This document shows positions 14,300 to 34,066 of a stretch of DNA of 34,066 nt, one piece after another; within the stretch, counting starts at the first letter, position 1, and each line of letters opens with the position of its first letter. This stretch comes from a virus (lineage: Duplodnaviria > Heunggongvirae > Uroviricota > Caudoviricetes). The notes under the pieces were generated by a model that worked only from the letters and a program-made list of their open reading frames with translations, did not search any database and was not told the origin of the DNA. The DNA is taken from positions 1-34,066 of the IMG/VR virus record IMGVR_UViG_2541047909_000004. One strand, written 5' to 3'. Position numbers and translations under genes: made by a program.

Positions 14300-14510
14300 C
14301 CTCTTTACATTCATTACAAATAATTGTGAATATATTCTATTACCGATGTCTGCTATGCGAATACATGCAATCAAGTGCAATGTTGTATAAAATATGCCGT
14401 AACAACTTCAGTGCTGATAATTCGTGTTAATGTATTTACTTCCTTTGGTCGGGATTTATGTAGCATGCCGGAAAATCTATTTTTTTCCGGCATCTTTTTG
14501 TTTGCAGAAT

Positions 14511-14787
14511 TTAAAACGGTATATTATCGCCGTACGGATCATCATTCCCCGACTGTTGTTTTGCCCTGTTCAGTGCGTCAGTGGCCTGCCCCTGCTGGCC
14601 TTTTTTGCCGCCCGGTCGCGCCGTTCGCGCACTGATTACGCTGTCTGCGATAACCTGCCAGCCCCGCCGCGTTTCGCCGTTCTGGCCTGTCCACTGGCTT
14701 ACCTGCATGTTACCCGCCACGCTCACCAGTTCGCCTTTGTGGTGTTTTGCCAGTGCGTCGGCCTGTCTGCCAAACGCCAGGACGGAT
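14511..14787 (-). pseudogene. ssb: Single-stranded DNA-binding protein (SSB) C-terminal fragment
   Basis: ...GELVSVAGNMQVSQWTGQNGETRRGWQVIADSV...DDPYGDNIPF with the SSB-type acidic tail; N-terminal OB-fold half missing, cut at the junction with B. Confidence 0.65.
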
Positions 14788-17360
<2,573 letters not shown>

Positions 17361-18095: not shown

Positions 18096-18294
18096 CGTAA
18101 CCTGTCGGATCGCCGGAAAGGACCCGCAAAATGATAATAATTATCATCTACATGTCACAACGTGCATCTACGCCATCAAACCACGTCAAATAATCAATTA
18201 TGACGCAGGTATCGTATTAATTGATCTGCATCAACTTAACGTAAAAACAACTTCAGACAATACAAATCAGCGACACTGAATACGGGGCAACCTC

Positions 18295-18489
18295 ATGTCA
18301 ACGAAGAACAGAACCCGCAGAACAACAACCCGCAACATCCGCTTTCCTAACCAAATGATTGAACAAATTAACATCGCTCTTGAGCAAAAAGGGTCTGGGA
18401 ATTTCTCAGCCTGGGTCATTGAAGCCTGCCGTCGGAGACTAACGTCAGAAAAGAGAGCATATACATCAATCCAAAGTGATGATGGATGA
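18295..18489 (+). CDS. Small phage protein (64 aa), YlcI/DUF3950-like
   Basis: ORF between cos and bor; family assignment by recall only. Confidence 0.5.
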   Translation: MSTKNRTRRTTTRNIRFPNQMIEQINIALEQKGSGNFSAWVIEACRRRLTSEKRAYTSIQSDDG

Positions 18490-18850
18490 ACATCCCGGTT
18501 TCTTCCACCATCGCACCGGAAAAGCGACTATGAGGGTAACCCTGCGTCTGTCAGCACAGTAAAACCCGGTGTGCATCGTTTTTGATTATTCCCGCACACT
18601 CACGCAGAAGGAATTCCCCGTCGGGCTACGGTCATGGTTAATGCGGGAATACGGCGACGATACAGCGCAGCTAAAAGGGTAATGGACAGATAGAGCGGTT
18701 TATTTCATTCCACAGGATTCTGAGTGCCCCCCCCTCCTCCAATAGGCTGAGCATCCACCTATATAGTTTTAATTTTCATCAATCCATTTAACTATCGTTT
18801 AATTGTTGTCACATAGGATTCTGCCGTTTTTAACAATGCAGGATAATAAG

Positions 18851-19144
18851 ATGAAAAAAATGTTGTTTTCTGCCGCTCTGGCAATGCTTATTACAGGATG
18901 TGCTCAACAGACGTTTACTGTTGGAAACAAACCGACAGCAGTAACACCAAAGGAAACCATCACCCATCATTTCTTCGTTTCGGGAATTGGACAGGAGAAA
19001 ACTGTTGATGCAGCCAAAATTTGTGGCGGCGCAGAAAATGTTGTTAAAACAGAAACCCAGCAAACATTCGTAAATGGATTTCTCGGTTTTATTACTTTAG
19101 GCATTTATACTCCGCTGGAAGCGCGTGTGTATTGCTCACAATAA
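18851..19144 (+). CDS. bor: Bor lipoprotein (serum resistance)
   Basis: MKKMLFSAALAMLITGCAQQ... lipobox LITGC; 97 aa; opposite strand to late genes as in lambda. Confidence 0.9.
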   Translation: MKKMLFSAALAMLITGCAQQTFTVGNKPTAVTPKETITHHFFVSGIGQEKTVDAAKICGGAENVVKTETQQTFVNGFLGFITLGIYTPLEARVYCSQ

Positions 19145-19175
19145 TTGCATGAGTTGCCCATCGATATGGGCAGCT

Positions 19176-19637
19176 CTATCTGCACTGCTCATTAATATAC
19201 TTCTGGGTTCCTTCCAGTTGTTTTTGCATAGTGATCAGCCTCTCTCTGAGGGTGAAATAATCCCGTTCAGCGGTGTCTGCCAGTCGGGGGGAGGCTGCAT
19301 TATCCACGCCGGAGGCGGTGGTGGCTTCACGCACTGACTGACAGACTGCTTTGATGTGCAACCGACGACGACCAGCGGCAACATCATCACGCAGAGCATC
19401 ATTTTCAGCTTTCGCATCAGCTAACTCCTTCGTGTATTTTGCATCGAGCGCAGCAACATCACGCTGACGCATCTGCATGTCAGTAATTGCCGCGTTCGCC
19501 AGCTTCAGTTCTCTGGCATTTTTGTCGCGCTGGGCTTTGTAGGTAATGGCGTTATCACGGTAATGATTAACAGCCCATGACAGGCAGACGATGATGCAGA
19601 TAACCAGAGCGGAGATAATCGCGGTTACTCTGTTCAT
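19176..19637 (-). CDS. Rz: Spanin inner-membrane subunit Rz
   Basis: [44 protein letters not shown]... 153 aa; ATG overlaps the R stop. Confidence 0.9.
19235..19417 (-). CDS. Rz1: Spanin outer-membrane lipoprotein Rz1 (embedded in Rz, +1 frame)
   Basis: 60 aa, ...[19 protein letters not shown]...[29 protein letters not shown]. Confidence 0.85.
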
Positions 19638-20131
19638 TGCTGACCCCACAAACAGATTTCACGCTCAATCTCACGACGAGTCATGAGACCTTTCCATTGC
19701 TTACCGCCAGCATATGTCCAGCGACGTAGCTGATCACATGCGCCTTTGATATCGCCCTGGTTTATTTTGCGAAGAAGCGTCGATGTTCTGAAATTGCCAG
19801 CACCCACGTTGTAAACGAATGAGTAAAGAGCGCCGCGCATTGTTTCCGGTATATCGACTTTGATGTACGGGTTAATTTGTCTGGCGACCGTGGCAAGGTC
19901 TTTATTCAGGAGGGCTTTGCATTCTGCTTTGGTATACGTTTTACCGAGCATGATGTCTTTTCCTGTATGCCCGTGACATACAGTCCATACACCAACAATA
20001 TCTTTGTATGGTATGTAGCTGACACCTTCCAGACCATCGTTACCACTTGGGCCAGTGATTAACACTGATGCTATAGCAATTGCTCCGCCACCAATAGCAG
20101 CAGCAACGGCTTTTCGTAATGATGGAGGCAT
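19634..20131 (-). CDS. R: SAR endolysin (phage-21-type lysozyme)
   Basis: 165 aa, [44 protein letters not shown]... N-terminal signal-anchor-release domain. Confidence 0.85.
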
Positions 20132-20346
20132 TATTCACCTCTCGCAGCCTTGCGCTTATCTTCTTTAATCTTGAAATAAAGGTTTGTCAGGTACGTCAGC
20201 AGGCCAAATACCAGGCTACCCAGCACACCTATTGCTGCCCACTGTGAGGGCGTGACTTTATCGAGCAGCTGTAAAAACCAGTAACCGGCACTACCTGCTG
20301 AGGTGCCATAGGCGACACCCGTTGTTAACTTATCCATGGATTTCAT
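20131..20346 (-). CDS. S: Pinholin (S21-type), dual-start motif MKSMDK
   Basis: 71 aa with two transmembrane segments; directly upstream of the SAR endolysin. Confidence 0.85.
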
Positions 20347-20471
20347 AACCCCACCTCGCAGACAAAGCGGGTGTAAATTAAGGGGATATTACGTATCGCA
20401 ATAAAGGCAGAAACGTAACAGATTCGGAGTCAGTGAATAACTCAGGTATTGGGTTATCAGCTAATATCGAG

Positions 20472-20508
20472 ACTCAAAAAATGGAAAAACCCGCTCGACG
20501 GCGGGTTT
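20472..20508 (-). terminator. Rho-independent terminator upstream of S (candidate late tR')
   Basis: Minus-strand AAACCCGC/GCGGGTTT stem followed by TTTTCCATTTTTTGAG, about 140 bp upstream of the S start. Confidence 0.6.
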
Positions 20509-20934
20509 AAGCTGTGTGACGAAGTAACCACTCTTAACAGCATAACCAATTTTTTACGTACGTAAACTACTAAATGATATTTGTGAGAATGCCACCGAGT
20601 GTTCAAAACACCACCACAAATACATAAGAAAACTTCAACAAATAATCAGTTAATAATTTCCGATGTTATTTTTAGTTTGTTTAAATTAAGCTAAAGAATT
20701 ATAGAGCACTTATAAATAAGTGCCATTAATATAAATTAGCTAATAGATTTATTTTTGTTCAGACAAGAGCCATGAATAGGATTAGATAGAAAAGGTTCAG
20801 ATAAAAATAGAGATCTACTTCACAAATTAAATGAGAAACTAAAACTTACATCTTGAAATAATCACATTGATTAGATGAATATTTATCGCGCAGTGACATC
20901 ATTTTTTAATAATAGTTCAAAAAAAGGGCGTACA

Positions 20935-22017
20935 ATGAAAAAATTAACAGTGGCAATTTCTGCTGTAGCTGCATCAGTACTGATGGCGATGTCTGCTCAG
21001 GCAGCTGAAATTTATAATAAAGACAGTAACAAGCTGGATCTATACGGGAAAGTTAATGCCAAGCACTACTTCTCCTCTAATGATGCAGATGATGGTGATA
21101 CTACTTATGCCCGTCTTGGCTTCAAAGGTGAAACCCAAATCAACGATCAACTGACTGGTTTCGGTCAGTGGGAATATGAATTCAAAGGCAACCGTGCTGA
21201 ATCTCAAGGTTCTTCCAAAGACAAAACCCGTCTTGCATTTGCAGGCCTGAAATTTGGTGATTACGGCTCCATCGATTACGGCCGTAACTACGGTGTAGCA
21301 TACGACATCGGTGCGTGGACTGACGTTCTGCCAGAATTCGGTGGTGATACCTGGACCCAAACAGATGTGTTCATGACTGGTCGCACTACTGGTGTTGCAA
21401 CTTATCGTAACAACGACTTCTTTGGTCTGGTCGATGGCCTGAACTTTGCTGCTCAGTATCAGGGTAAAAATGACCGCACTGACGTAACTGAAGCCAATGG
21501 TGATGGTTTCGGTTTCTCCACTACTTATGAGTATGAAGGATTCGGCGTGGGTGCAACCTATGCTAAATCAGATCGCACTGACGGTCAGGTCGCCTATGGT
21601 AAGAGCAAATTCAATGCCTCCGGCAAAAATGCGGAAGTATGGGCTGCAGGCCTGAAATATGATGCGAACAATATCTATCTGGCTACCACATATTCTGAAA
21701 CTCAGAATATGACCGTTTTTGGTAATAACCATATTGCAAACAAAGCACAAAACTTTGAAGCAGTAGCACAATATCAGTTTGACTTCGGTCTGCGCCCATC
21801 TGTTGCTTACCTTCAGTCAAAAGGTAAAGACCTTGGTGTTCATGGTGACCGAGACTTAGTCAAGTATGTCGATGTCGGTGCTACTTACTACTTTAATAAA
21901 AACATGTCTACTTTTGTTGATTACAAAATCAACTTAATTGACGATAGTAAGTTTACCAAAACAGCTGGTATTGATACCGACGACATCGTCGCTGTAGGTC
22001 TGGTTTATCAGTTCTAA
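20935..22017 (+). CDS. nmpC: Outer membrane porin (OmpC/OmpF family; NmpC/Lc-like phage porin)
   Basis: 360 aa with signal peptide [38 protein letters not shown] start of mature porin and C-terminal ...VGLVYQF. Confidence 0.85.
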
Positions 22018-22027
22018 TCTGACTTAC

Positions 22028-22068
22028 GAAAAAGATATGTTGCGGGAGGCTTTGCCTCCGCAACATAT
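22028..22068 (-). terminator. Hairpin with T-run on the minus strand (terminator after Q operon)
   Basis: ATATGTTGCGGGAGGC/CCTCCGCAACATAT stem; A-run on plus equals U-run for the minus-strand transcript. Confidence 0.5.
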
Positions 22069-22154
22069 AAGTGGAGCCCTCAAGCCACTTCCTTTAGAAG
22101 CACTACCTTGCTTCTTACTATATAAACCTTCTGTTATATATTACCCTTTATTTT

Positions 22155-22180
22155 GGGGGCGTTTCCACGCCCCATTTTTA
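22155..22180 (+). terminator. Rho-independent terminator downstream of porin gene
   Basis: GGGGCGT-TTCC-ACGCCCC followed by ATTTTTA. Confidence 0.6.
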
Positions 22181-22205
22181 ATAACTTTTAGTAAACAATT
22201 GCATA

Positions 22206-22589
22206 TCAATTAGAATTATTAGCAACGATATCCATATCTAACCGGATATCTAATGCCATTAACATCCCTTCAATTATGCCCTCAGCCTTCTGTAACCTTT
22301 TCCCGATATAACCATCCGAGCAGCAATGCTTACTTGCCAGTGACATGAATGTCATACCACATACATAATAATCTACTAATAAATCGTGTAAATCGCTGTT
22401 GTTCTTTTTCAGACGGGCCATGCACCCGCAAATGATCATCGCGTCATCGTCACAACAATGCGGGCGAGATTTTACTTTTGAAGGAATTAATCCCTTAAAA
22501 CCGGCGGCAATGGACGACCAGGCCACATCTTCATGATTATTAGCCGCCCACGCTCCCCAACGTTCAAGAACCATCTGAATATCACGCAT
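22206..22589 (-). CDS. Q: Late-gene antiterminator Q (phage 82/QuuD type)
   Basis: [22 protein letters not shown]...[16 protein letters not shown]... Cys-rich Q82-like; position upstream of the lysis genes. Confidence 0.8.
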
Positions 22590-22606
22590 TAACTTTCTCC
22601 ACAAAA

Positions 22607-23602
22607 TCAGGCCAGCACACCAATCGCCAGTGCGCGATCGATAAAACGAAATATCAGCTCCAGCTGGGAGCCATACTTCTCTTCAAATGCCACGGTATCC
22701 GCATGCAGTTCGTCGTGGTGTTTTCTGCACAAAGGCAGCACAAAAAGGTCATGCGCTTTTGTACCCATTCCACCCTGACCATGGCCTATCAGATGATGCG
22801 GATCATCAGCTGGCTTTCCACAACATGCACACGGCTGCGTCTTAACCCAGCGCGTGTACTGTTCATTAACCCAGCGACGACGTTTGGGGCGTAACATAAA
22901 AGACTCCGGCGACTCCGGATCCACTTTCAGCGCCAGCACCTTTTTCGCTTTATCCTGGATAATGCTGGTGGCAGGAACCGAAGGCACAAGGTCACTTTCC
23001 CGGGTGACAGACGGCAAAACAGACTTCGGTAATCTCAGTGCCTTACGGGCTGCGCTTTCCGGTAAGGCATCCGCCAGGTCATTACGAACCAGCCACCAGC
23101 ACAGTTCCGGCATTGTCACGGCATGGTTATCATTAAAATCGAGATCCCGACGGACTACAGACAACACCCAACGGGCACAGTTATCCGTTGCCATTGATTC
23201 CAGCCGCTCCGTGAACTGATCACGTAACTGATTATCGCAGTGCCAGCACAGACGGATTGCGCCCGGCGCGTGTCGCATTGTGGTCATGTTCTCGCTGTGC
23301 CAGTCGGAATGAGGCCACTGGCAGCCTTTTTCACGAAGTAACCAGCTTTCAAGACATTCCACCCCACCAGCACGACGAATCACTGCCTCATTACGGAACA
23401 CGGCCCGAACGGCAGGATCATCCGCCAGCGGTTGTGATGCCGCGGGAACGGCACCACTGGCGAAAGATGAATAATGCTCCGGCTCAGGCTCCAGCAGTAC
23501 ACGCCCCTGCATAAACAGGGGCATCAGCTCTGAACCGGGCCTGAACAATACGATCCCCATACGCGGGGCAATTTCAGGGGTCAATAGTGCTCTCACGGTC
23601 AC
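22607..23602 (-). CDS. DUF968-like protein with Cys/His-rich C-terminal motif (putative HNH-like nuclease)
   Basis: ...[43 protein letters not shown]...; start uncertain (GTG at 23602 or ATG at 23560). Confidence 0.6.
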
Positions 23603-23603
23603 C

Positions 23604-24401
23604 TCAATGAACGGTATCGAGCAGCTTTAACAGCTCAGGGAATCGGGATTCGAAGAAATGCGGCTGCGTCTCGCGCGGATTTGCGGGACTGGTGATGTTC
23701 TTGCCGAACATGCAGCCTTTCGCTGTCAGCGACCAGAATTTTTTGATGTTGTTAATCGCGGTACGGCTGTATCGTTCGCGCTGCTCGACGATCCCCAGCT
23801 TCACCATCTGGTGATATGCCTGATTAGCTGTCAGGCGGATACCATACTGCTTCAGCAGTGCACTCAGTGACAGCGTGGGACGGCTTGAGCCATCAGGCGC
23901 GTCAGCAGGAGCATCAATGGCATAGCGCGGTGCCAGATTCGGTAAGCCAACAGCCTCCTGGAGTTTCTGACAGGCACCAAGCACTGAAGAGTTAGACAGG
24001 TTTAACTCCCGGCGCATAAAGTCCAGCAGAATCACGCCAGCCTGCATCTTGTCAGCAGCCTGCCCGGATAATTTTTCCGATGCGCTGGTTACCATATCGA
24101 AAGTACGGATCACCTTCAGATGGAATGACGGGCTGATCCACATTGCATAGGCATACACCAGTTCTTTGCAGACATACGTCCCCTGGTTATTTCCGCCACG
24201 AATAACGTTAACTGGCTCTATATTGACCGAGTTGCAAATCTGCAACTCGCTTATTAAACGTTCAGTTTGCTCATTGCGGAGCCAGAATGCAGGCTTATGC
24301 TTATCCAGAGAACCGGCAGCCCTGTGCAGATCGTTCAGGCTGTAACGCCCATAAGCATCACGACGAACTTCAATACCATCAATGACCATCAGATTATTCA
24401 T
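23604..24401 (-). CDS. KilA-N domain protein
   Basis: N-terminal VIDGIEVRRDAYGRYSLNDLHRAAG...KPAFWLRNEQTERLISEL typical of KilA-N; ATG at 24401 with SD GAGGAG. Confidence 0.7.
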   Translation of the reverse strand: MNNLMVIDGIEVRRDAYGRYSLNDLHRAAGSLDKHKPAFWLRNEQTERLISELQICNSVNIEPVNVIRGGNNQGTYVCKELVYAYAMWISPSFHLKVIRTFDMVTSASEKLSGQAADKMQAGVILLDFMRRELNLSNSSVLGACQKLQEAVGLPNLAPRYAIDAPADAPDGSSRPTLSLSALLKQYGIRLTANQAYHQMVKLGIVEQRERYSRTAINNIKKFWSLTAKGCMFGKNITSPANPRETQPHFFESRFPELLKLLDTVH

Positions 24402-24420
24402 ACTTCGTTTCTCCTCTTGA

Positions 24421-24810
24421 TCAGGCGGCTGCACCCGCCGTTTTCTCGTACTTACTGATAGTGATCTCGACCTTCCCTTCCGGGATAACCGGTCCCCACT
24501 CCACCAGCATTCTTTTCACCTGGCTGTCGTCTTCCCACACACCCGCGTGGGTCAGGGCGTCAAACAGCGCCTTGTTATAGTTGTCCAGATCGCGGATCCG
24601 GTTATCCGGAGGAAACAACACGATCTCCACTGAAGCAGGTGCCGACGTTGGTTTCGGCAGACGACGTAACTGCTCAACTATTGCTGTGCACGCCGCACTC
24701 TGGAATTTTCGCCCCGCCGCGCTTATCAGGCTCTTACCAGCAAATGCCACTTTGTTGGGGTGTCGCCAGTAGGTGTTCACGCTGGGTGGAAAAGGCAGAA
24801 TCAGCTTCAT
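24421..24810 (-). CDS. rusA: Holliday junction resolvase RusA
   Basis: MKLILPFPPSVNTYWRH...NRIRDLDNYNKALFDALTHAGVWEDDSQV... RusA family motifs. Confidence 0.85.
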   Translation of the reverse strand: MKLILPFPPSVNTYWRHPNKVAFAGKSLISAAGRKFQSAACTAIVEQLRRLPKPTSAPASVEIVLFPPDNRIRDLDNYNKALFDALTHAGVWEDDSQVKRMLVEWGPVIPEGKVEITISKYEKTAGAAA

Positions 24811-25133
24811 ACTTTCAGCCCCCTCTCATGTAACCAGTGGGCTGCACGCAGCCTGGCGTTTTCCTCACCAGCAAGCAGTGCGCGGATAATCCCGGCCACC
24901 TCGCTGTCGTCGTCCTTCACCGCGGTATGAAGCGTGATGCCCCGGGCCACGCCACGCTTTATCGTGATGACGCCTTTTTTCTCCAGTGCGCGAAGATGCT
25001 CCACCGCTGCATTCACTGAACGGTATCCCAGCATGGTAGCCACCTCCTGATTGGTTGGCGGGAAGCCACGTTCTTTCTGGTAAGAAATCAGCATATCCAG
25101 CACCTGCTGCTGGCATTGAGTTAACGTCGTCAT
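24807..25133 (-). CDS. LexA-N-terminal-like winged-helix DNA-binding protein
   Basis: LTQCQQQVLDMLISYQKERGFPPTNQEVATMLGYRSVNAAVEHLRALEKKGVI parallels the LexA DNA-binding domain; ATG overlaps upstream stop (TAATG). Confidence 0.65.
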   Translation of the reverse strand: MTTLTQCQQQVLDMLISYQKERGFPPTNQEVATMLGYRSVNAAVEHLRALEKKGVITIKRGVARGITLHTAVKDDDSEVAGIIRALLAGEENARLRAAHWLHERGLKV

Positions 25134-25627
25134 TAAGCCCCCACGTAATTCCCTGACAGATACCACTCTTCACCCGATACAGCGCGCTTGCTGCTTTTCC
25201 GTAAACACCGCTCACGACGCGCAAGAAAATTGTTTCGCTCTTGCTGGGAGTGGCTTTCACGGAATGCCGCCATCCACACCGTTGCAGCACGACGGTATAA
25301 GCCCCTGGACTCCAGTTCTTCCGCCTGGCGGGTCAGGCACAAAATCACCCGGGGATCGTTAGTGCCGACATAGAAATTGCGCACAGGTCTGGATTCACGA
25401 ACTGGTTGCGGTTCCGGCTCCTGCGGTATCTCAGTCAGCCGCGGGAAATGTCTGCGTGTATCCCCTTCACAACGGTGAGCCACACGCCCACTCTGACGTA
25501 ACTTGCTTGCTGACTGCAGAACGCGCTGTCGTGAGTAACCTGCAAAAGCATCCGCAATGTCTCCGGAAGTACACCCCGGATGGGCTTCAATGAATTTCTG
25601 AACGTCATTCAAAAGACTCATGATCAC
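25133..25627 (-). CDS. PerC-like regulator (164 aa; CPS-53 YfdN-like)
   Basis: C-terminal ...LESRGLYRRAATVWMAAF... PerC-type motif; assignment by recall. Confidence 0.55.
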   Translation of the reverse strand: MIMSLLNDVQKFIEAHPGCTSGDIADAFAGYSRQRVLQSASKLRQSGRVAHRCEGDTRRHFPRLTEIPQEPEPQPVRESRPVRNFYVGTNDPRVILCLTRQAEELESRGLYRRAATVWMAAFRESHSQQERNNFLARRERCLRKSSKRAVSGEEWYLSGNYVGA

Positions 25628-25992
25628 CCCCTGAATCCTGCCGGGATCTGGCTGTAGTCCACGTTGTCGTAACTGGCTTTGAAGTACGGGTCTTCGCGTT
25701 TTTCGGTGTACGTGCTGACGGACGGCGATAAGCGCAGGGAAAGCTCATCCCATTTTTCCCGCAGCTTCGACGGGCTGAGCACGTTACGGCACCAGAACGG
25801 ATCGCGACTGACGCGGCTGTACATCTCGCAGATTTGTTTATGAGTACGACCATCCTGCACACACATCAGGCGAATTTCGTTTGCCCAGGCTATCCAGTTC
25901 GGTTCTTTGGGACGAACCACCTCGCCGTCACATTCGGCGGCATGCTCGTACAGGGCGATGATTTTTTTCCAGAGCCACTGTGCGCAGGTCAA
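25624..25992 (-). CDS. Probable replication-initiator (O-like) C-terminal remnant (122 aa; CPS-53 YfdO-like)
   Basis: Lies just downstream of an iteron-like array; non-ATG (TTG) start; identification by recall and context. Confidence 0.45.
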   Translation of the reverse strand: MTCAQWLWKKIIALYEHAAECDGEVVRPKEPNWIAWANEIRLMCVQDGRTHKQICEMYSRVSRDPFWCRNVLSPSKLREKWDELSLRLSPSVSTYTEKREDPYFKASYDNVDYSQIPAGFRG

Positions 25993-26109
25993 ATCATCCT
26001 GCGTCCCCCACTGGCGCTTTTTAGGGCTGAATACAACCGCATCAGGATGGCGAGTTAAAAAATCCTGTTCAGCCGTCTGCGTGTCCGGTTGCGAAGCGTC
26101 CGGACGAGA

Positions 26110-26275
26110 AGTTTTTTTATCTGACGGATCATGTTTTGATTTTACTGACGGATCCCCACCAGATTCTGACGGGTGAAAACCCGCTTTTTTGCCAGATTTC
26201 GACGCATCAAATTTTGACGGGTCAGATTTTGATGCGTCAGATTTTGACGGGTCAGAATCTGACAGTTGAGAAAAT
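26110..26275. repeat. Iteron-like array: several direct repeats of TGACGGGTCAGA / TGATGCGTCAGATTT-type units next to an AT-rich stretch (candidate replication origin)
   Basis: About 18-bp periodic units CAGATTTTGACGGGT / CAGATTTTGATGCG between 26200 and 26265 plus CTGACGGATC repeated at 26121 and 26145. Confidence 0.6.
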
Positions 26276-26555
26276 GCCGCTGCCTGAAGCTTCGCAACGT
26301 TAAGCTGATAAACATTCGACGCATTGCGGTTAATCCATCATTTGGATTGGGGTAAATATCAGGACGCAGTTCATGAGGGGTCACGGACCAGTTTCCCAAC
26401 TCACAAAGTTGTAAAACCCGTTCTGACGGGACTTGATTGTTAATTACCCAATTAGCGACGGATTGAGTGGACTTAAAACCAAAGTGACGGGCTACTTCAG
26501 ATAAAGATTTTCCCGCAGCTTTTACTGCTTTCTCTGTGTAGTTTTGAGATGACAT
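26142..26555 (-). CDS. Cro/YdaS-like HTH protein whose ORF extends through the iteron array
   Basis: N-terminal ...LSEVARHFGFKSTQSVANWVINNQVPSERVLQLCELGNWSVTPHELRPDIYP... Cro/YdaS-type HTH; C-terminal tail (LTRQNLTHQNLTRQNL) is encoded by the repeats; SD GAGGAGAAAGG. Confidence 0.65.
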   Translation of the reverse strand: MSSQNYTEKAVKAAGKSLSEVARHFGFKSTQSVANWVINNQVPSERVLQLCELGNWSVTPHELRPDIYPNPNDGLTAMRRMFISLTLRSFRQRHFLNCQILTRQNLTHQNLTRQNLMRRNLAKKRVFTRQNLVGIRQ

Positions 26556-26640
26556 ACCTTTCTCCTCTGAAATTCAGAGGGATGATGCTACTTAAAATAG
26601 CAGAATGCAACTACTTAAAATAGAAATGACTAGCGTATGT
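26556..26640. promoter_or_regulatory. Immunity-region operator/promoter segment between divergent cro-like and cI-like genes
   Basis: Perfect-arm palindrome CCTCTGAA-A-TTCAGAGG at 26564-26580 and two direct copies of CTACTTAAAATAG at 26588-26600 and 26611-26623. Confidence 0.5.
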
Positions 26641-27366
26641 GATGCGAGTAACCTTCTACCTATGGTAGAAGAACAGAAGTATCCAGATTTCGCCAAGAGA
26701 CTAAACGAGCTAATGACAAACAAGGGAATTTCTGTCACCCAACTCAAAAGTCTTGTGGGCGTTACATATGAAATGGCGCGGCGATACACAATCGGCGCTG
26801 CGAAGCCTCGTGCCTCTGTCATGAATAAACTTGCATTGGCTCTGGGGGTATCAGCTTCATATTTAGAATATGGTGTTGGCGAGAGAGAAGGATGTAAGGA
26901 AATGGCAAGCATCCCCAATCCAACAAAACCCGATGTATACAGGATAGAAGTTTTGGATCTTAGCGTTAGCGCAGGACCTGGAACCTATATGCTTTCAGAC
27001 TATGTTGATGTGCTCTACGCCATTGAGTTCACAACAGAGCATGCCCGTTCTCTTTTCGGTAATCGTTCTCAAGATGATATTAAAGTTATGACTGTAAATG
27101 GCGACAGCATGTCCCCTACTCTAGTTTCCGGAGATCGACTGTTTGTCGACATTTCTGTTCGCAACTTCCAAACTGATGGTGTTTACTCTTTCGTTTATGG
27201 TAAGACGTTCCACGTTAAACGTCTACAAATGCAAGGCAACAAACTCGCCGTTCTTTCGGATAATCCAGCCTATGAGAAATGGTACATTGATGAGAAGTCC
27301 CAAGATCAACTTTATGTTATGGGCAAAGCATTGATACACGAATCAATTAAATACAACCGGCTTTAG
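26605..27366 (+). CDS. cI: CI-like prophage repressor (HTH plus S24 LexA-like peptidase domain)
   Basis: C-terminal ...VNGDSMSPTLVSGDRLFVD...FHVKRLQ... Ser/Lys autocleavage module; N-terminal HTH; start uncertain (26605, 26629 or 26662), possibly leaderless. Confidence 0.8.
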   Translation: MQLLKIEMTSVCDASNLLPMVEEQKYPDFAKRLNELMTNKGISVTQLKSLVGVTYEMARRYTIGAAKPRASVMNKLALALGVSASYLEYGVGEREGCKEMASIPNPTKPDVYRIEVLDLSVSAGPGTYMLSDYVDVLYAIEFTTEHARSLFGNRSQDDIKVMTVNGDSMSPTLVSGDRLFVDISVRNFQTDGVYSFVYGKTFHVKRLQMQGNKLAVLSDNPAYEKWYIDEKSQDQLYVMGKALIHESIKYNRL

Positions 27367-27536
27367 TTCTTCGTTTAGACTATAGAACTAAAGGTGAAAA
27401 AATAATATTTATCAAGCAAGTGCTATTACTAATAGTTGTTTTACTCTCTTATTTTTATTAAACATTATCATTAACAATATAAAATAATCACCCAGCGTAA
27501 ATTACAATATGCTGGGGGTCGAAAGGATAGAGAAAT

Positions 27537-28613
27537 ATGACAAAATCAATTTGTTTTTTTAATCATAAAGGTGGGGTAAGTAAAACCACAACAACCTTCA
27601 ATCTTGGATGGGCACTTGCGGATGAAGGCAAGAAAGTATTGATGGTTGACCTTGATTCGCAATGTAATCTAACAGGAATGGTTCTTGGCTATGAAAAGAT
27701 TGATGAGGGTTTAGATTCTTTTTATTCTAGCAGAGATAACTTAACTCTTGGACCTATTGTAGAATATTTGATTAATGGCGGACAACCTGAAGCATACCTT
27801 GAAAAAGAAACGGGAAAATTACACCCTACACTGCATGAAAACCTTCTGCTTCTTCCCGGACATTTAGATGTTTCGGACTTAGATTCACAGATAAGTGTTT
27901 CTCTAAAAATTGCTGCTGGTATTCCTGCTACAAGAAATATACCAGGGAACCTGCCAAAAATATTACAGCTAATCGCCATGAAGAATAATATTGATTACAT
28001 TCTTTATGATCTCAGCCCTAATGTTGGAGGTTTAAATGAAGTAGTTCTCATGTCAAGTGACTATTTTATCGTACCTGTAGCTCCAGACTTTTTTTGCTGG
28101 CAAGCAATTCGCTCTCTCTCAAAAAATATACCTCGCTGGCACAAAGAATTAGCATTATTTAAAGAAAATAATGATGGTAACTCTTCACAATCAATTAAAA
28201 ATGCACCGCAGTTTCTAGGTATGATTCAGCAGAGATACAGGCCGCGTAAAGGAGCACCTGTAAAATCTTTCGAAAAATGGATGGCAGCTATCCGTGATGC
28301 TGTTGATTCGATCTTAGTGCCAAATCTAGAAAAAATTACCTGCATAATTCCACGAGATAAAGTGCAACATGCAATTAACAAAACAACAGTCAGTGGAGAT
28401 TTATCAGCCTATGATCTTGCGCATATTTCCGATTTCAACTCATTAATCGCAATAAGCCAACAACTAGCGACACCTGTTTTCTCCATCAGTGATCAGCAAA
28501 TTCGCGATTCAGGGCAATTTGGGCATGCCTTAAATACAATGAAATCAAGCAGAGACGCCTTTAACGAACAATTTAAAGGGCTGGCTCAACGAGTTCTAGA
28601 ACTTACAAAGTAA
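27537..28613 (+). CDS. ParA/MinD-family ATPase (358 aa, deviant Walker A), low-GC moron in the rexAB-equivalent position
   Basis: FFNHKGGVSKTTTTFNLGWALADEGKKVLMVDLDSQCNLT Walker A; SD AAGGATAG; AT-rich gene and flanks; immediately downstream of cI on the same strand. Confidence 0.8.
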   Translation: MTKSICFFNHKGGVSKTTTTFNLGWALADEGKKVLMVDLDSQCNLTGMVLGYEKIDEGLDSFYSSRDNLTLGPIVEYLINGGQPEAYLEKETGKLHPTLHENLLLLPGHLDVSDLDSQISVSLKIAAGIPATRNIPGNLPKILQLIAMKNNIDYILYDLSPNVGGLNEVVLMSSDYFIVPVAPDFFCWQAIRSLSKNIPRWHKELALFKENNDGNSSQSIKNAPQFLGMIQQRYRPRKGAPVKSFEKWMAAIRDAVDSILVPNLEKITCIIPRDKVQHAINKTTVSGDLSAYDLAHISDFNSLIAISQQLATPVFSISDQQIRDSGQFGHALNTMKSSRDAFNEQFKGLAQRVLELTK

Positions 28614-28620
28614 TGCATGT

Positions 28621-28648
28621 GCCCGGCCGCATAACCGGGCTTTACTCT
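28621..28648 (+). terminator. Rho-independent terminator after ParA-like gene
   Basis: GCCCGG-CCGCATAA-CCGGGC followed by TTTACTCTTCTTTC. Confidence 0.6.
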
Positions 28649-28800
28649 TCTTTCTCCCTGATTAATCTCATAAAAAACTCCCTCCTCATAATTCACTATG
28701 CTCAATACCTACTCCAACTTCGTGCGATATTTTCAGTTTACAGCATAGTAAATCAGCAAAAACATTTAACTTTCAATTAATTATAGAAAAATCATAGACA

Positions 28801-28848
28801 ACAACAAATATCTACTTTTTGTTGTTGATTTTTGCTACTTTAAGTAGC
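28801..28848. promoter_or_regulatory. Candidate left operator/promoter region (inverted repeats sharing the CTACTT half-site)
   Basis: ACAACAAA...TTTGTTGT inverted repeat at 28801-28825 and GCTACTT-TA-AGTAGC at 28834-28848, followed by CATAAT. Confidence 0.4.
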
Positions 28849-29003
28849 AACATAATGTAAGCTATCACGGACAGGCAGGACGCCCACGAAGTAGCCGCCG
28901 GTGGCGTATGAATGACCGGATGATTCGTTAGCAACAAAAAAGCGCCCTACAGGACGCTTAGCTCTTTAACAATCTTAGTATCCCCGTAACAAAAGAGGGT
29001 TCT

Positions 29004-29297
29004 ATGGTCATATTCTGTGCTTACGTTCATCCTAATGGATTTTTTATCAGCACCAACCAACAAGACGAATTCTGGATTCTACTTAGTAAGCAGGTCGGAT
29101 GGGGACGATTCTGTCTAATCCGACCAGAATCAGAATTTACAGAGAATGGAGGGCTTTTTGAATTACGTGAAATACGTCCGGCAGATGGTCAAGCCCCTGA
29201 CCAAGTAATCGAATCGTCAGCTGTTTTATGGCGTCGGCAGGAAGCGTTCGAAGCTGAGAGAGTAATTTCTTCTTATCTTCAGTCGTGGCAGAAGTAG
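29004..29297 (+). CDS. Hypothetical protein (97 aa), first ORF downstream of candidate pL
   Basis: ATG preceded by AAGAGGG; overlaps the convergent 167-aa ORF by 161 bp, so only one may be fully real. Confidence 0.4.
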   Translation: MVIFCAYVHPNGFFISTNQQDEFWILLSKQVGWGRFCLIRPESEFTENGGLFELREIRPADGQAPDQVIESSAVLWRRQEAFEAERVISSYLQSWQK

Positions 29298-29640
29298 AAC
29301 TATTGATGATACGTTCAAGTTCACAGAGAGTCTCATCATGCAATCTTATTGTCATAATCCCAAGAATAGCTTTAAGACCTCCATCATCACGAATGAAATC
29401 AATTCCATCTTTAGTAATTCTTAATTCAGGAATATTTATATTTATGCCATCCAAGTAATAATCAAGAGCATTCTTAATCAAGCCATGTTCTTCGAGATAA
29501 ATTAAGTTCGAAATTAGGACATTATCATCTCCAAATGCGTCACGAACAGACTGCAACGCATCATCAGAAATTTCATAAGGATGAGCATCATACAGTATTT
29601 GTAACAACTGCCTTTGTGCACTTCTATCAAATTTGTCCAT
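29137..29640 (-). CDS. Hypothetical protein (167 aa), AT-rich, opposite strand to the early operon
   Basis: Long ORF with protein-like composition (MDKFDRSAQRQLLQILYDAHPYEISDD...); weak SD; no recognisable motif. Confidence 0.5.
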   Translation of the reverse strand: MDKFDRSAQRQLLQILYDAHPYEISDDALQSVRDAFGDDNVLISNLIYLEEHGLIKNALDYYLDGININIPELRITKDGIDFIRDDGGLKAILGIMTIRLHDETLCELERIINSSTSATTEDKKKLLSQLRTLPADAIKQLTIRLLGQGLDHLPDVFHVIQKALHSL

Positions 29641-29699
29641 CTTAAATAATCACCATGTTATTGGGGGTATCAAGATTAACCGAATCCTTGTTGTTGGGG

Positions 29700-30070
29700 A
29701 ATAACCAGGTCCACCTCGCCTGATGTGGCTAAAAGCAGGCACATAACAGCTAAGTATTTTCAACCAGAGAGAATCCTTAGCGTTGTGGTGAATGCGGCTC
29801 AGCGCACGCGGGTTAAGGTTGAGGCTGACAGTCGACCTTCTGTGGATACCCACCCGCCTGGTGTGCAACCTTCGCCAGGCACCGGGAGGCACCCGGCACC
29901 ACAACAGCCACTGCTTTGGCGGTACCAGTTTGTACACTTGCTTCCGGCTGGCACCGCTCTTTTTACAAAACAGAGAAGAGCATCACCGGACGACGGGCTC
30001 ATAACCCAATCCATCCGGGCGGCTGCCACCGCAGGTGTTCTTCTCTGTTTTGTGGAGAAACCAACCGACC
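29700..30070. other. GC-rich, ORF-poor island with extensive dyad symmetry (candidate structured ncRNA or cis element)
   Basis: 15-bp perfect long-range inverted repeat ACAAAACAGAGAAGA (29965-29979) / TCTTCTCTGTTTTGT (30039-30053); several local GC hairpins; short ORFs in all six frames. Confidence 0.4.
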
Positions 30071-30101
30071 TTGCAGGGTCGATATGATGAGGAGCAGCAA
30101 A

Positions 30102-30464
30102 ATGGCTAGCGAACGCAGTACTGATGTGCAGGCATTTATCGGGGAGCTGGACGGCGGCGTATTTGAAACCAAAATCGGCGCAGTTCTCAGTGAGGTCGCT
30201 TCCGGTGTGATGAACACGAAAACCAAAGGGAAGGTCTCACTCAATCTGGAAATCGAACCGTTTGATGAGAACCGTGTGAAAATCAAACACAAACTCTCAT
30301 ATGTTCGCCCAACTAACCGCGGGAAAATTTCCGAAGAAGACACCACCGAAACGCCGATGTATGTCAATCGCGGTGGTCGCCTGACTATTCTGCAGGAAGA
30401 CCAGGGACAATTACTGACTCTTGCCGGTGAACCTGACGGAAAACTCCGCGCAGCAGGTCGTTAA
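30102..30464 (+). CDS. Hypothetical early protein (120 aa; CPS-53 YfdP-like)
   Basis: ATG at 30102 with SD GAGGAG; MASERSTDVQAFIGELDGGVFETKIG... Confidence 0.6.
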   Translation: MASERSTDVQAFIGELDGGVFETKIGAVLSEVASGVMNTKTKGKVSLNLEIEPFDENRVKIKHKLSYVRPTNRGKISEEDTTETPMYVNRGGRLTILQEDQGQLLTLAGEPDGKLRAAGR

Positions 30465-30529
30465 TATCGTTCGTAATAAACTGATTATTTATCTCATCAC
30501 TGAATATCTTTATATAGTGAGGACTTATT

Positions 30530-31354
30530 ATGTCTCAGAACTTAGACGCAACCGCAATTAATCAAATCCATGCCCTTATTTCTGCTCAGGGTGTTAATGA
30601 AATTATCAGTAAGATTGGTGCCGATGCTGTGGCATTGCCTGAGAATTTCCGCATTCATGATCTGGAAAAATTTAATTTAAATCGCTTCCGTTTCCGTGGT
30701 GCACTTTCCACTGCCAGCATCGATGATTTTACCCGTTATTCTAAAGATCTTGCAGATGAAGGCACCCGCTGCTTTATCGATGCCGATAATATGCGTGCCG
30801 TCAGTGTGCTTAACCTGGGTACTATTGATGAGCCAGGTCACGCAGATAACACTGCCACTCTCAAACTGAAAAAGACAGCACCGTTCTCTGCTCTGTTGTC
30901 TGTTAACGGCGAGCGTAACTCCCAGAGGTCACTGGCAGAATGGATCGAAGACTGGGCCGACTACCTTGTGGGCTTTGATGCTAATGGTGACGCCATTCAA
31001 GCAACAAAAGCGGCTGCGGCAGTCCGTAAAATCACGATTGAAGCAAACCAGACCGCTGATTTTGAAGATAATGACTTCAGCGGCAAACGCTCCCTGATGG
31101 AGTCTGTCGAAGCGAAGACCAAAGACATTATGCCAGTGGCATTTGAATTTAAATGCGTTCCGTTTGAAGGTCTGAAAGAACGTCCGTTTAAATTACGCCT
31201 CAGCATTATCACTGGCGATCGTCCTGTACTGGTTCTGCGCATTATTCAGCTGGAAGCGGTGCAGGAAGAAATGGCTAACGAATTTCGTGATCTGCTTGTT
31301 GAGAAATTCAAAGACAGCAAAGTAGAAACCTTTATTGGTACTTTCACCGCCTGA
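30530..31354 (+). CDS. Hypothetical early protein (274 aa; CPS-53 YfdQ-like)
   Basis: ATG with SD GAGGA; length and sequence recall YfdQ. Confidence 0.65.
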
Positions 31355-31366
31355 TTTCATTACTGC

Positions 31367-31390
31367 AAATGCCCCTGCGGGGGCATTTAT
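31367..31390 (+). terminator. Hairpin downstream of the 274-aa gene (terminator-like)
   Basis: AAATGCCCC-TGCG-GGGGCATTT perfect dyad. Confidence 0.4.
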
Positions 31391-31481
31391 GGAAACGTAA
31401 TTAACTCAATAATCACCGGATGGTGAGGGCTTCCTTTTACCAGAATTCAGCGCGGTGCAGTGCATATACGTGGAGAACAAA

Positions 31482-32018
31482 ATGTCATTTATTAAAACTT
31501 TTTCCGGGAAGCATTTTTATTATGACAAGATAAATAAAGACGACATCGATATTAACGATATCGCGGTTTCCCTTTCAAATATCTGTCGCTTTGCCGGTCA
31601 TCTTTCGCACTTCTACAGCGTCGCCCAACATGCGGTTCTTTGCAGCCAGCTGGTGCCGCAGGAATTTGCTTTTGAAGCGTTAATGCATGATGCAACAGAA
31701 GCGTATTGCCAGGACATTCCCGCACCACTGAAACGCCTTCTTCCTGACTATAAACGGATGGAAGAAAAAATAGACGCCGTAATCCGTGAGGAATACGGGT
31801 TACCCCCAGTTATGAGTACACCCGTGAAATATGCCGATCTCATCATGCTGGCAACCGAACGCCGCGATCTCGGGCTTGATGATGGCTCTTTCTGGCCTGT
31901 ACTGGAAGGCATCCCGGCAACAGAGATGTTCAACGTGATTCCACTGGCACCGGGTCATGCCTACGGGATGTTTATGGAACGTTTTAACGATTTATCGGAG
32001 TTACGCAAATGCGCATGA
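31482..32018 (+). CDS. yfdR: HD-domain protein (5'-deoxynucleotidase-like; YfdR-like)
   Basis: MSFIKTFSGKHFYYDKINKDDIDINDIAVSLSNICRFAGH...ALMHDATEAY H..HD motif; SD TGGAGA. Confidence 0.75.
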   Translation: MSFIKTFSGKHFYYDKINKDDIDINDIAVSLSNICRFAGHLSHFYSVAQHAVLCSQLVPQEFAFEALMHDATEAYCQDIPAPLKRLLPDYKRMEEKIDAVIREEYGLPPVMSTPVKYADLIMLATERRDLGLDDGSFWPVLEGIPATEMFNVIPLAPGHAYGMFMERFNDLSELRKCA

Positions 32019-32371
32019 ATGTTTTCGAAATGGAAGGGTTTCTTCGCGGGAAATGTGTACCGCGAGATCTGAAAGTGAATGAAACAAATGCTGAGTACCT
32101 GTTACGTAAATTCGACGCGCTTGAAGCTAAATGTGCGGCACTGGAAAACAAAATAATACCAGTGTCAGCTGAACTGCCACCAGCAAATGAAAGTGTTCTG
32201 TTATTTGATGCTAATGGAGAAGGCTGGCTGATTGGCTGGCGTTCTCTCTGGTACACCTGGGGACAAAAAGAAACCGGAGAATGGCAGTGGACATTTCAGG
32301 TCGGGGACCTTGAAAACGTCAATATCACTCACTGGGCAGTAATGCCAAAAGCACCGGAGGCTGGAGCATAA
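32009..32371 (+). CDS. Hypothetical early protein (120 aa; YfdS-like)
   Basis: ORF overlapping the upstream stop; SD GGAG. Confidence 0.6.
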   Translation: MRMNVFEMEGFLRGKCVPRDLKVNETNAEYLLRKFDALEAKCAALENKIIPVSAELPPANESVLLFDANGEGWLIGWRSLWYTWGQKETGEWQWTFQVGDLENVNITHWAVMPKAPEAGA

Positions 32372-32676
32372 TGACCACATTTACCAATAAAGAACTGATT
32401 AAAGAAATCAAAGAACGAATCAGCAGCCTAGAGGTTCGAGACGATATTGAGCGCCGTGCTTATGAAATCGCACTCGTATCTCTGGAAGTAGAGCCAGATG
32501 AACGCGAAGCCTATGAATTATTCATGGAAAAGCGTTTCGGTGACTTAGTAGATCGTCGGAGAGTAAAAAACGGCGATAACGAATACATGGCATGGGATAT
32601 GACTCTCGGTTGGATCGTCTGGCAGCAACGAGCTGGTATCCATTTTTCAACAATGACACAGCAAGAGGTGAAATAA
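32371..32676 (+). CDS. Hypothetical early protein (101 aa; YfdT-like)
   Basis: ATG overlaps upstream stop (TAATG); acidic protein. Confidence 0.6.
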   Translation: MTTFTNKELIKEIKERISSLEVRDDIERRAYEIALVSLEVEPDEREAYELFMEKRFGDLVDRRRVKNGDNEYMAWDMTLGWIVWQQRAGIHFSTMTQQEVK

Positions 32677-33047
32677 TGGAGCCATACAGCCTCACACTCG
32701 ATGAGGCCTGTCAGTTTCTTAAGATATCCAGACCAACCGCCACCAACTGGATACGAACAGGCCGCCTACAGGCAACACGTAAAGATCCAACCAAGCCAAA
32801 ATCTCCTTACCTCACAACACGGCAAGCTTGCATTGCGGCGCTTCAGTCTCCGCTGCATACTGTCCAAGTGAGCGCGGGTGATGGCATAACAGAGGAAAGA
32901 AAATGTCACTCTTCCGCAGAAATGAAATATGGTATGCCTCGTATTCGCTCCCGGGCGGGAAACGAATTAAGGAATCTCTTGGCACAAAGGACAAGCGGCA
33001 AGCTCAGGAGTTGCACGACAAGCGAAAAGCAGAACTCTGGCGAGTAG
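32676..33047 (+). CDS. xis: Excisionase-like HTH protein (Xis)
   Basis: [35 protein letters not shown]... excisionase-type HTH; ATG overlaps upstream stop; 3' end overlaps int start, so the true stop is uncertain. Confidence 0.6.
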
Positions 33048-34066
33048 AAAAGCTAGGGGATTTACCTGATGTCACTTTTGAAGAGGCCTGCCTAAGATGG
33101 CTTGAGGAAAAAGCTGATAAAAAATCTCTCGATTCAGATAAAAGCCGGATTGAGTTCTGGCTTGAACATTTTGAGGGTATAAGGCTTAAAGATATCTCGG
33201 AGGCAAAGATTTACTCTGCTGTAAGCAGAATGCATAACAGAAAGACGAAAGAAATATGGAAACAGAAAGTTCAGGCCGCCATCAGGAAAGGTAAAGAACC
33301 GCCTGTTTATGAACCAAAGCCAGTATCAACTCAGACAAAGGCAAAGCATCTTGCCATGATAAAGGCCATTCTCCGTGCTGCAGAACGCGACTGGAAGTGG
33401 CTGGAAAAAGCGCCTGTCATCAAGATACCAGCGGTCAGAAACAAGCGAGTCAGATGGCTGGAAAAGGAGGAAGCAAAACGCCTTATTGATGAGTGCCCCG
33501 AACCACTGAAATCTGTCGTCAAGTTTGCGCTGGCAACTGGTCTGAGAAAGTCGAACATCATAAATCTGGAATGGCAACAAATCGACATGCAGCGACGAGT
33601 TGCCTGGGTGAATCCAGAAGAGAGCAAATCAAACCGCGCCATTGGTGTGGCGCTGAACGATACCGCCTGTAAAGTGTTGCGTGATCAAATAGGCAAGCAT
33701 CACAAATGGGTGTTTGTACATACCAAGGCGGCTAAGCGAGCAGATGGAACATCAACGCCTGCGGTCAGGAAGATGCGCATCGACAGCAAGACATCATGGC
33801 TATCAGCTTGTCGTCGTGCAGGAATTGAAGATTTCCGTTTCCATGACCTCAGACACACCTGGGCAAGCTGGCTGATCCAGTCAGGCGTCCCATTATCTGT
33901 GCTTCAGGAAATGGGCGGATGGGAGTCCATAGAAATGGTTCGTAGGTATGCTCACCTTGCGCCTAATCATTTGACAGAGCATGCAAGGAAAATAGACGAC
34001 ATTTTTGGTGATAATGTCCCAAATATGTCCCACTGTGGAATTATGGAGGATATAAAGAAGGCGTAA
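32903..34066 (+). CDS. int: Tyrosine recombinase, phage integrase
   Basis: 387 aa; C-terminal catalytic region ...[42 protein letters not shown]... with R/H-x-x-R/Y residues; SD AGGAAAG; stop codon is the last triplet of the window. Confidence 0.9.

Follow-up and report, generated by a model that had tools for sequence, protein, structure and literature searches.

Why a phage replication initiator should appear in pieces, beside an array of direct repeats that runs through the end of a Cro-like open reading frame (ORF), is the question raised by one segment of the IMG/VR virus record IMGVR_UViG_2541047909_000004 (positions 1 to 34,066, the whole stretch analysed here and hereafter the window). 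A first-pass annotation of this DNA had described repeats resembling a lambda-type origin in the 3' half of a 137-aa Cro/YdaS-like ORF, followed by a 122-aa ORF that looked like the C-terminal remnant of an initiator, within a replication module that appeared degraded or unconventional. Comparison with intact relatives indicates that the region is very probably the scar of a 1,202-bp deletion in the replication module of a lambdoid prophage. The parts of the scar are as follows.

26331/26332: deletion junction, a TA dinucleotide common to both parental sequences.
26142-26555, minus strand: chimeric ORF of 137 aa, defined by its translation and by comparison with relatives.
25624-26332, minus strand: remnant of a lambda-O-type initiator gene, codons 79-313 in SfIV gp41 numbering, comprising the linker with the iterons and the C-terminal domain.
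25624-25992, minus strand: 122-aa ORF with a TTG start, the O C-terminal domain, equivalent to the K-12 YfdO (b2358) ORF.

A deletion joins cro to the O gene

When the window was aligned by blastn with the prophage of E. coli IHE3034 (locus L003), positions 24316-26332 matched L003 2767-4798 at 99.0% and positions 26331-28975 matched L003 6001-8645 at 100%, the two matches overlapping by 2 nt at the junction; the intervening 1,202 bp of the IHE3034 prophage (L003 4799-6000) are missing from the window. The IHE3034 gene order is cI, divergent from cro (87 aa), then ymfL, a DUF4222 gene, the O-type initiator, yfdN, a lexA-like gene, and rusA. The missing segment encodes the last 12 codons of Cro, ymfL (Phage_CP76, CII-like), the DUF4222 gene, and codons 1-78 of the 318-aa initiator. 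The alignment with intact relatives that the first-pass annotation had proposed thus located the lesion, and its view that the module is broken was borne out. The other outcome it had envisaged, that a 137-aa Cro and a separate 122-aa protein are the ancestral state, was not what we found, as the intact relatives encode a Cro of 87 aa and an O protein of 313-318 aa.

The same endpoint was found in phage genomes, in which the O or "primosomal protein" genes of SfIV, SfII, PhiR29_1, Kati, and others matched the window by megablast with 97-99.6% identity and every match ended at 26332. Intact O genes of this type are present in 1,575 of the 5,426 complete E. coli genomes searched. The chimeric product is also found elsewhere: the exact protein occurs in 138 blocks of public assemblies, the protein or junction recurs in NCBI assembly GCA_039751875.1, in ENA metagenomes, and in a JGI metagenome contig, and one NCBI assembly is 100% identical in DNA to window positions 18142-34066. 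This recurrence in independent assemblies indicates a real allele and not an assembly error. A frame break introduced by sequencing or assembly into one intact gene might have been suspected, as the two ORFs adjoin and the N-terminal pieces have about the same length (75 cro codons and 78 codons of the O N-domain); however, those pieces are non-homologous (YdaS_toxin versus HTH_36), 1,202 bp with three genes are missing as a gap in collinearity, and the same junction is seen in many independent assemblies, so that we give this explanation practically no weight.

The 137-aa ORF consists of two unrelated parts. Residues 1-75 are those of a native YdaS-type Cro, identical to the 87-aa protein of the relatives through L75, and residues 76-137 come from out-of-frame reading of the O gene. 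A YdaS/Cro helix-turn-helix (HTH) domain, PF15943, matches residues 9-70 (E = 4.8e-11; 42.8 bits, with the cutoff at 30; positions 3-63 of the 65 in the profile); the HTH domain is thus complete, and the native size and C-terminus are gone. The assignment of this ORF as Cro/YdaS-like therefore held for its HTH, but the 3' half in which the array had been placed is O sequence brought in out of frame by the deletion. A natural domain swap, with the Cro HTH substituting for the winged helix of O, was considered and rejected: the frames differ, and the two are separate genes in intact relatives.

The O frame itself is open for 237 codons (26337->25624), with no start codon or ribosome-binding site of its own before the TTG at 25992. 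Against phrog_391, "replication initiation O-like", the remnant scores 1.5e-94 over profile positions 79-298 only, and it also matches phrog_277 and phrog_9773, which bear the same description. By BLASTP the O-type protein is 30% identical to lambda O over 216 aa (E = 2e-26), the homology being that of the C-domain (residues ~187-270), and the 122-aa ORF is 37% identical to lambda O residues 195-270 (E = 1e-20), which bears out the first supposition that it is an initiator's C-terminal remnant. The 122-aa ORF further matches phrog_2357 (3.8e-55) and is identical to K-12 YfdO at 120 of 122 residues (98%). Intact O relatives carry an HTH_36 winged helix at residues 23-70 (4.3e-11), for which a PDB sequence search of the intact protein returned only weak MarR-type winged-helix matches; the window remnant is without any iteron-binding N-domain. 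The TTG start is weak, with AGGA four nt upstream, and the 122-aa ORF is a gene-caller salvage of the O C-domain.

Whether the fused frames might nevertheless make a single product depends on the following elements.

26184-26190, minus strand: A_AAA_AAG heptamer of the dnaX type, read from the sequence and its translations.
26588-26600 and 26611-26623: two exact 13-bp copies of the direct repeat CTACTTAAAATAG, 23 bp apart, in the cI-cro intergenic region, identified by repeat finding.

The chimeric cro frame reads the heptamer in phase, slippage by -1 there leads into the O frame, and a 5-bp hairpin, CGGGT-TTTC-ACCCG, follows directly (it is listed as a stem-loop on the opposite strand). One could thus picture an unconventional functional initiator in which programmed -1 frameshifting joins the Cro-like HTH to the linker and C-domain of O. 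We regard this as very improbable: the cro frame meets the heptamer only through the deletion, and no intact relative has the heptamer in phase; the 47 residues between junction and slip site are out-of-frame junk; the spacer between heptamer and hairpin is ~1 nt, versus the usual 5-9 nt; and the YdaS HTH has predicted operators of its own, CTACTTAAAATAG, which are unrelated to the iterons. The phasing of A_AAA_AAG is an accident that the deletion brought about, and the heptamer is no programmed site. Only two routes could lead from the chimeric locus to the O C-domain: initiation at the weak TTG and a rare -1 slip on the heptamer.

In the deletion-scar model, the element is a lambdoid prophage whose replication module is of the SfIV/e14/CPS-53 type, and an illegitimate deletion at TA microhomology removed 1,202 bp from its early-right operon. 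Codon 75 of cro now runs into codon 79 of O, in the -1 frame. Cro has thereby lost its last 12 residues, in place of which translation continues through the iterons for 62 residues of nonsense; ymfL and the DUF4222 gene are gone; and O is without its start codon and DNA-binding domain. Transcription from the cro side would then yield the chimeric Cro, with an intact HTH and uncertain function, and no initiator. The iterons and their AT-rich flank are intact and identical to those of functional phages, but with the cognate initiator no longer encoded the origin would be dead in cis and could fire only if an O protein of the same specificity were supplied in trans by a co-resident or infecting phage. 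We infer that the prophage is replication-defective. The locus is otherwise an ordinary one, the truncated O gene of a cryptic lambdoid prophage and a further allele of the K-12 yfdO kind. For annotation, this means that the 137-aa "YdaS/Cro-like" and 122-aa "YfdO" ORFs are halves of one deletion scar, best recorded as pseudogene fragments, and the prophage scored as replication-defective.

The repeats lie in the linker-coding part of O

The repeats and the AT-rich stretch next to them occupy three segments.

26188-26267, minus coding strand (26267->26188): five contiguous 15-bp iterons, from Tandem Repeats Finder (TRF), repeat finding, and the sequence listing.
26120-26180: three looser iteron-like sites with irregular spacing, TGACGGATCA, TGACGGATCC, and TGACGGGTGA.
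26107-26146: the most AT-rich 40 nt of the O remnant, 72.5% AT in the composition profile.

TRF reports tandem direct repeats at 26193-26256 with a period of 15, 4.3 copies, and 81% matches; direct repeats are thus present as first described, with a period of 15 bp and not of about 18 bp. On the coding strand, units 1-5 read TCAGATTCTGACCCG, TCAAAATCTGACGCA, TCAAAATCTGACCCG, TCAAAATTTGATGCG, and TCGAAATCTGGCAAA. The partial dyad symmetry that had been noted is seen in the palindromic cores TGACGGGTCA and TCAAAATTTGA and in many inverted-repeat pairs. With up to 2 mismatches allowed, the 10-mer TGACGGGTCA occurs at six plus-strand positions within 26122-26254 (133 bp). Across both strands of the 34-kb window the same search gives 52 matches, compared with 25 +/- 6 in shuffled sequence (52 was reached in 0 of 100 shuffles). 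The window-wide background is ~1 match per 800 bp, and the Poisson estimate for the local cluster is ~3e-8.

All of the iterons lie within the O reading frame (25624-26337), so that at least four direct repeats with internal dyad symmetry are found inside an initiator ORF. In the O frame the five 15-bp units translate as SDSDPSKSDASKSDPSKFDASKSGK, and three-frame translation of the minus strand gives for the iteron region a hydrophilic linker, SDSDPSKSDASKSDPSKFDASKSGKK; read in the frame of the chimeric ORF, the same units yield (QNLTR)n nonsense. The array is base-identical in SfIV and PhiR29_1, both plaque-forming phages. Among other intact O genes the number of units varies, with one more in IHE3034 (L003 4692-4720) and fewer in IMG/VR loci L016 and L081, always by whole 15-bp units so that the reading frame is kept. 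The AT-rich 40 nt lie 3' of the tandem iterons with respect to O transcription, which is where oriLambda has its AT-rich unwinding region, and overlap the last iteron-like sites.

Is the array a replication origin?

We consider that the array is probably a replication origin, a view suggested indirectly by its position next to a C-domain homologous to that of lambda O, by its base identity with the arrays of SfIV and PhiR29_1, by its variation among relatives, and by its difference from the likely operators. The repeats fall at the same linker position as the four iterons of lambda, between the N- and C-domains of O, and the resemblance to a lambda-type origin put forward in the first-pass annotation therefore stands. 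A second O allele, found in L133 and 16 other IMG/VR loci (17 in total), has an unrelated N-domain and its own repeats, of the CATCGGGTCAAAGTGACC type, at the same linker position (L133 1786-1943), and is joined in frame to the same C-domain at the equivalent of L003 ~4562. This co-variation of iterons with the N-domain is the specificity-module pattern expected of lambdoid origins, and it would fit binding of the array by the N-domain that the window has lost.

The repeats could instead be transcription-factor sites, as Cro/cI operators or as boxes for SrsR (YgfI). The operator version was tried and rejected: the repeats that fill the cI-cro intergenic region, CTACTTAAAATAG, are different ones and themselves likely operators, to judge from their sequence and placement. 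The SrsR version is founded on experiment. In the yfdO/yfdP spacer of K-12 CPS-53, the LysR-type regulator SrsR footprints "four sets of an 11-bp sequence TCAGATTTTGC" and activates yfdONMLK (PMC9181523). These four DNase-I-footprinted repeats (TCAaATTTTGa and variants; K-12 spacer L008 ~4950-5030) are the same repeats as the iterons at window 26193-26267. However, intact phages have them within the coding sequence of O, where lambda has its iterons; they change together with the allele of the O N-domain; and SrsR binding is known in the truncated K-12 context only, where it may be opportunistic. We therefore think it unlikely that regulator binding, and not an origin, accounts for the repeats. 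PMC9181523 makes no mention of iterons or of a replication origin, and the "SrsR boxes" upstream of K-12 yfdO are readable as the iterons of a dead phage origin.

Several points weigh against the interpretation given here. The flank at 26107-26146, although present downstream of the repeats as first described, is only moderately AT-rich (72.5%, versus 80% in oriLambda) and overlaps iteron-like sites. A literature search found no experimental origin mapping for SfIV/SfV-type modules in any family member; the SfIV paper goes no further than to call orf41-45 "the replication module" (PMC3851460). In K-12 the repeats have at least one other binding partner, the host SrsR. The two halves of 26000-26700 each match thousands of complete E. 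coli records but are contiguous in none of the 5,426 genomes, and an exact-match search found no window-type junction in the GTDB representative genomes, which confines the allele to a narrow lineage. Finally, the loss of the initiator was judged from the 34,066-nt window alone. The deletion-scar reading is independent of whether the array is an origin.

Recurrent breakpoints at one position of the O gene

The O homology of K-12 CPS-53 yfdO (L008 5087) ends at the same nucleotide as that of the window, 26332 (...GCATTGCGGTTA, then the break). A breakpoint scan was made with the 22-mer ending at the breakpoint, searched in IMG/VR, JGI metagenomes, and GTDB genomes. Five types of junction were found at this single O position, between codons 78 and 79 (...GCATTGCGGTTA followed by CC in the intact gene).

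Window type: right side ATCCATC, joined to the 3' part of the YdaS-type cro.
K-12 type: right side TGATGAGG, joined to the yfdP upstream region.
L093: right side TCCGGTC, joined to the 3' end of an SfIV-type cro.
L057: right side GCCTCATCG, joined to the cro-downstream region of a related immunity type.
L159/L164: right side TCGGAGT, joined to the equivalent of window 31995.

L118 has a sixth junction, 26 nt beyond the shared position and at a motif like it (GCGTTAA before CC). At the crossover, all partners for which parental sequence is available end in TA or TAA. In the same scan, in which the intact 22-mer had to be followed by a non-intact base, no junctions were seen at three control positions of the O gene, and a search for junctions keeping the opposite side of the site returned only a single-nucleotide variant. 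Every deletion that shares the breakpoint thus keeps the side with the iterons and C-domain. When 144 loci were sampled by anchor, O was truncated elsewhere in just one of them, L139, where the break falls within the iterons. Of the 5,426 complete genomes, 361 have the K-12-type junction; by subtraction, about 65 have neither this junction nor the intact one. At L065 ~5662, an otherwise intact O gene has CC for CCC right after GCGGTTA, a 1-nt loss that would frameshift O.

Candidate causes of the shared endpoint were examined in turn. At none of the junctions did we find an insertion-sequence end, terminal inverted repeats, or a recombinase signature. A single-stranded DNA hairpin at the breakpoint was discounted as weak (-10.4 kcal/mol, z -2.0). 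Both breaks on the O side fall 5' of CC, where RusA prefers to cleave, and the site overlaps GGTTACC (a GGTNACC palindrome); neither feature is supported as a cause, as the partner sites are without them.

Why at least five independent deletions have one base-exact endpoint is a lead in its own right. One reading is that the remnant of iterons, O C-domain, and yfdN is retained as an element useful to the host, as a regulatory node or as a decoy that would titrate the initiator, or a host partner, of incoming phages with this replication type, a reading that is compatible with a deletion scar. At least five independent deletions keep this side of O and none the other, and the frequency of the K-12-type remnant among complete genomes points the same way. 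However, selection does not explain the coincidence of endpoints to the base, and the polarity could equally reflect selection against the ymfL/ymfM-type genes carried on the deleted side, ymfM of e14 being an SOS-induced division inhibitor. Further in favor of retention, PMC9181523 reports phenotypes of yfdO deletion (citing Wang et al. 2010) and control by SrsR. On this evidence, retention for host use seems possible, though on balance doubtful. The recurrence of a base-exact endpoint goes beyond what selection alone would give; selection may explain the polarity. A stronger proposal, which we hold to be speculative and rather unlikely, is that a deletion hot spot, specific in sequence and one-sided, lies between codons 78 and 79 of O and repeatedly yields retained, functional "iterons + O C-domain + yfdN" remnants, K-12 yfdO included. 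If this were true, the remnants might, for example, act as an SrsR-controlled operon leader, or impair the replication of an incoming phage that uses this type of origin, by titrating its initiator, or a host partner of that initiator, through the DnaT-like tail described below.

Downstream genes, helicase loader, and DnaT-like tail

Three genes follow the O remnant in the direction of its transcription.

25133-25627, minus strand: YfdN-like protein of 164 aa with a C-terminal PerC/ANR domain (PF06069 9.2e-10; phrog_1324 5e-78).
24807-25133, minus strand: LexA DNA-binding-domain protein, 108 aa in relatives (PF01726 3.7e-19; annotation of relatives).
24421-24810, minus strand: RusA Holliday-junction resolvase, the first nin-type gene (PF05866 8.5e-15).

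Further downstream are genes for a KilA-N protein, a DUF968/HNH protein, and a Q-type antiterminator. Lambda encodes a P protein; here the start of the yfdN-like gene overlaps the O stop, the position of P in lambda. Searches with Pfam, NCBIfam, and PHROGs found no P-, DnaC-, or DnaB-like protein between cro and rusA, and positions 24421-25627 gave only PerC, LexA_DNA_bind, and RusA. A loader is likewise absent from SfIV, SfII, SfV, mEp460, PhiR29_1, and the IHE3034 prophage. The first-pass annotation was thus right that no helicase loader is recognizable, but not in taking this as a sign of degradation: in relatives that form plaques or are inducible, such as SfIV, SfII, SfV, and PhiR29_1, YfdN/PerC-like and LexA-like genes come directly after O and there is neither P nor DnaC, so that absence of such a loader is the normal state of this module family. 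We also considered YfdN as an analogue of P, which is not supported, YfdN having no similarity to lambda P and no PDB sequence relatives.

The last nine residues of O, SQIPAGFRG (25624-25650), match the end of E. coli DnaT, SQIPPGFRG, at 8 of 9 positions (E = 0.009); the C-terminal 20-mer of the O-type protein ends ...DNVDYSQIPAGFRG. The intact homologue is not itself DnaT (primosomal protein I, as some records annotate it), as only these nine residues match and nothing else does, and the DnaT-like tail probably explains the "primosomal protein" annotations of O homologues. SQIPAGFRG is possibly a host-recruitment motif of O-type initiators that lack P, which offers as a lead that such initiators may recruit the host helicase through a DnaT-like C-terminal tail. 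Our literature search found no assigned partner for the C-terminal tail of DnaT.

Immunity region and remainder of the prophage

On the other side of the junction the window carries the repressor gene.

26662-27366, plus strand: cI-like repressor with an XRE HTH and an S24 peptidase domain (Peptidase_S24 1.6e-16; HTH_3; Pfam).

The mechanical ORF begins at 26605, and the annotated IHE3034 homologue of 234 aa places the start at 26662. The gene is 100% identical in DNA to L003 6332-7036 of IHE3034, annotated "XRE family transcriptional regulator", and a promoter-like match lies at 26592-26621 in the cI-cro intergenic region. Directly 3' of the repressor, in the window and in IHE3034 alike, is a gene for a 358-aa ParA/AAA_31 ATPase (27537-28613, plus strand). 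Positions 28976-29655 (~680 bp) are absent from the IHE3034 prophage, whose equivalent gap is ~550 bp; this segment overlaps a 167-aa ORF (29137-29640, minus strand) with no Pfam match.

Decay is seen in the remaining prophage as well: it has two portal fragments, decoration genes in duplicate, a second gene for the small terminase, and an ORF of the capsid-E::J fusion type. The fusion ORF (4578-8210, minus strand; 1,210 aa) matches the major capsid protein E family at residues 14-128 and lambda J tail-tip domains over the remainder, and its domain composition looks like the result of a large deletion of head-completion and tail genes; no match to a tail shaft or tape-measure family was found among the ORFs scanned. 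The head region (8239-15261) is a patchwork of portal fragments (14710-15261, 9881-10654) and decoration genes (12902-13243, 8239-8577), with an excisionase-like gene (12507-12890) and the second small-terminase gene (11763-12317) in its middle, a pattern suggestive of two joined and decayed head modules. The gene at 20875-22017 (plus strand) encodes a porin of the OmpC/NmpC type (Porin_1). It is flanked by the Q antiterminator gene and the lysis genes, lies on the strand opposite to theirs, and has the look of an Lc/NmpC-type moron.

Comparison with known systems

The closest relatives of the remnant are the intact initiators of SfIV (gp41), SfII, PhiR29_1, and IHE3034, with the 97-99.6% DNA identity extending over 25130-26332; these are annotated variously as "primosomal protein", "DNA replication protein O", and "HTH domain-containing protein". 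They keep O codons 1-78 with the winged helix, preceded by ymfL-like and ymfM/DUF4222 genes and a complete cro, all of which the window is without. K-12 CPS-53 (KpLE1) yfdO, described as a "defective phage replication protein O", has the same iterons upstream and yfdN downstream as in the window. The K-12 break, however, leads into the region upstream of yfdP (equivalent to window 30083), with cro, cI, and parA also lost, whereas that of the window leads into cro codon 75. The two elements also differ in chromosomal site and in integrase, the window having a 387-aa integrase adjoining a 210-aa response-regulator gene.

The N-terminal part of the 137-aa ORF belongs with the YdaS/Cro-type HTH proteins (Rac YdaS family), which it resembles in the family match over residues 9-70 and in the placement of the gene, divergent from a cI-like repressor with predicted repeated operators in between. 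It differs from native Cro in that the last 12 residues are swapped for 62 out-of-frame residues.

To lambda O and oriLambda the likeness is one of arrangement and of the C-terminal domain, which is homologous: the iterons lie inside the linker segment of the initiator gene, an AT-richer stretch, less marked than in lambda, is just downstream, and the next gene overlaps the O stop. Lambda has four 18-bp iterons spaced 20-24 bp, whereas five plus three repeats with a 15-bp period are found here. The N-domain of the intact relatives is HTH_36 and that of lambda O is Phage_rep_O, and the BLASTP alignment to lambda O omits the N-domain; in the window, unlike lambda O, that domain is deleted. Where lambda has P there is here a YfdN/PerC-like gene, and the DnaT-like SQIPAGFRG C-terminus is not aligned to lambda O.

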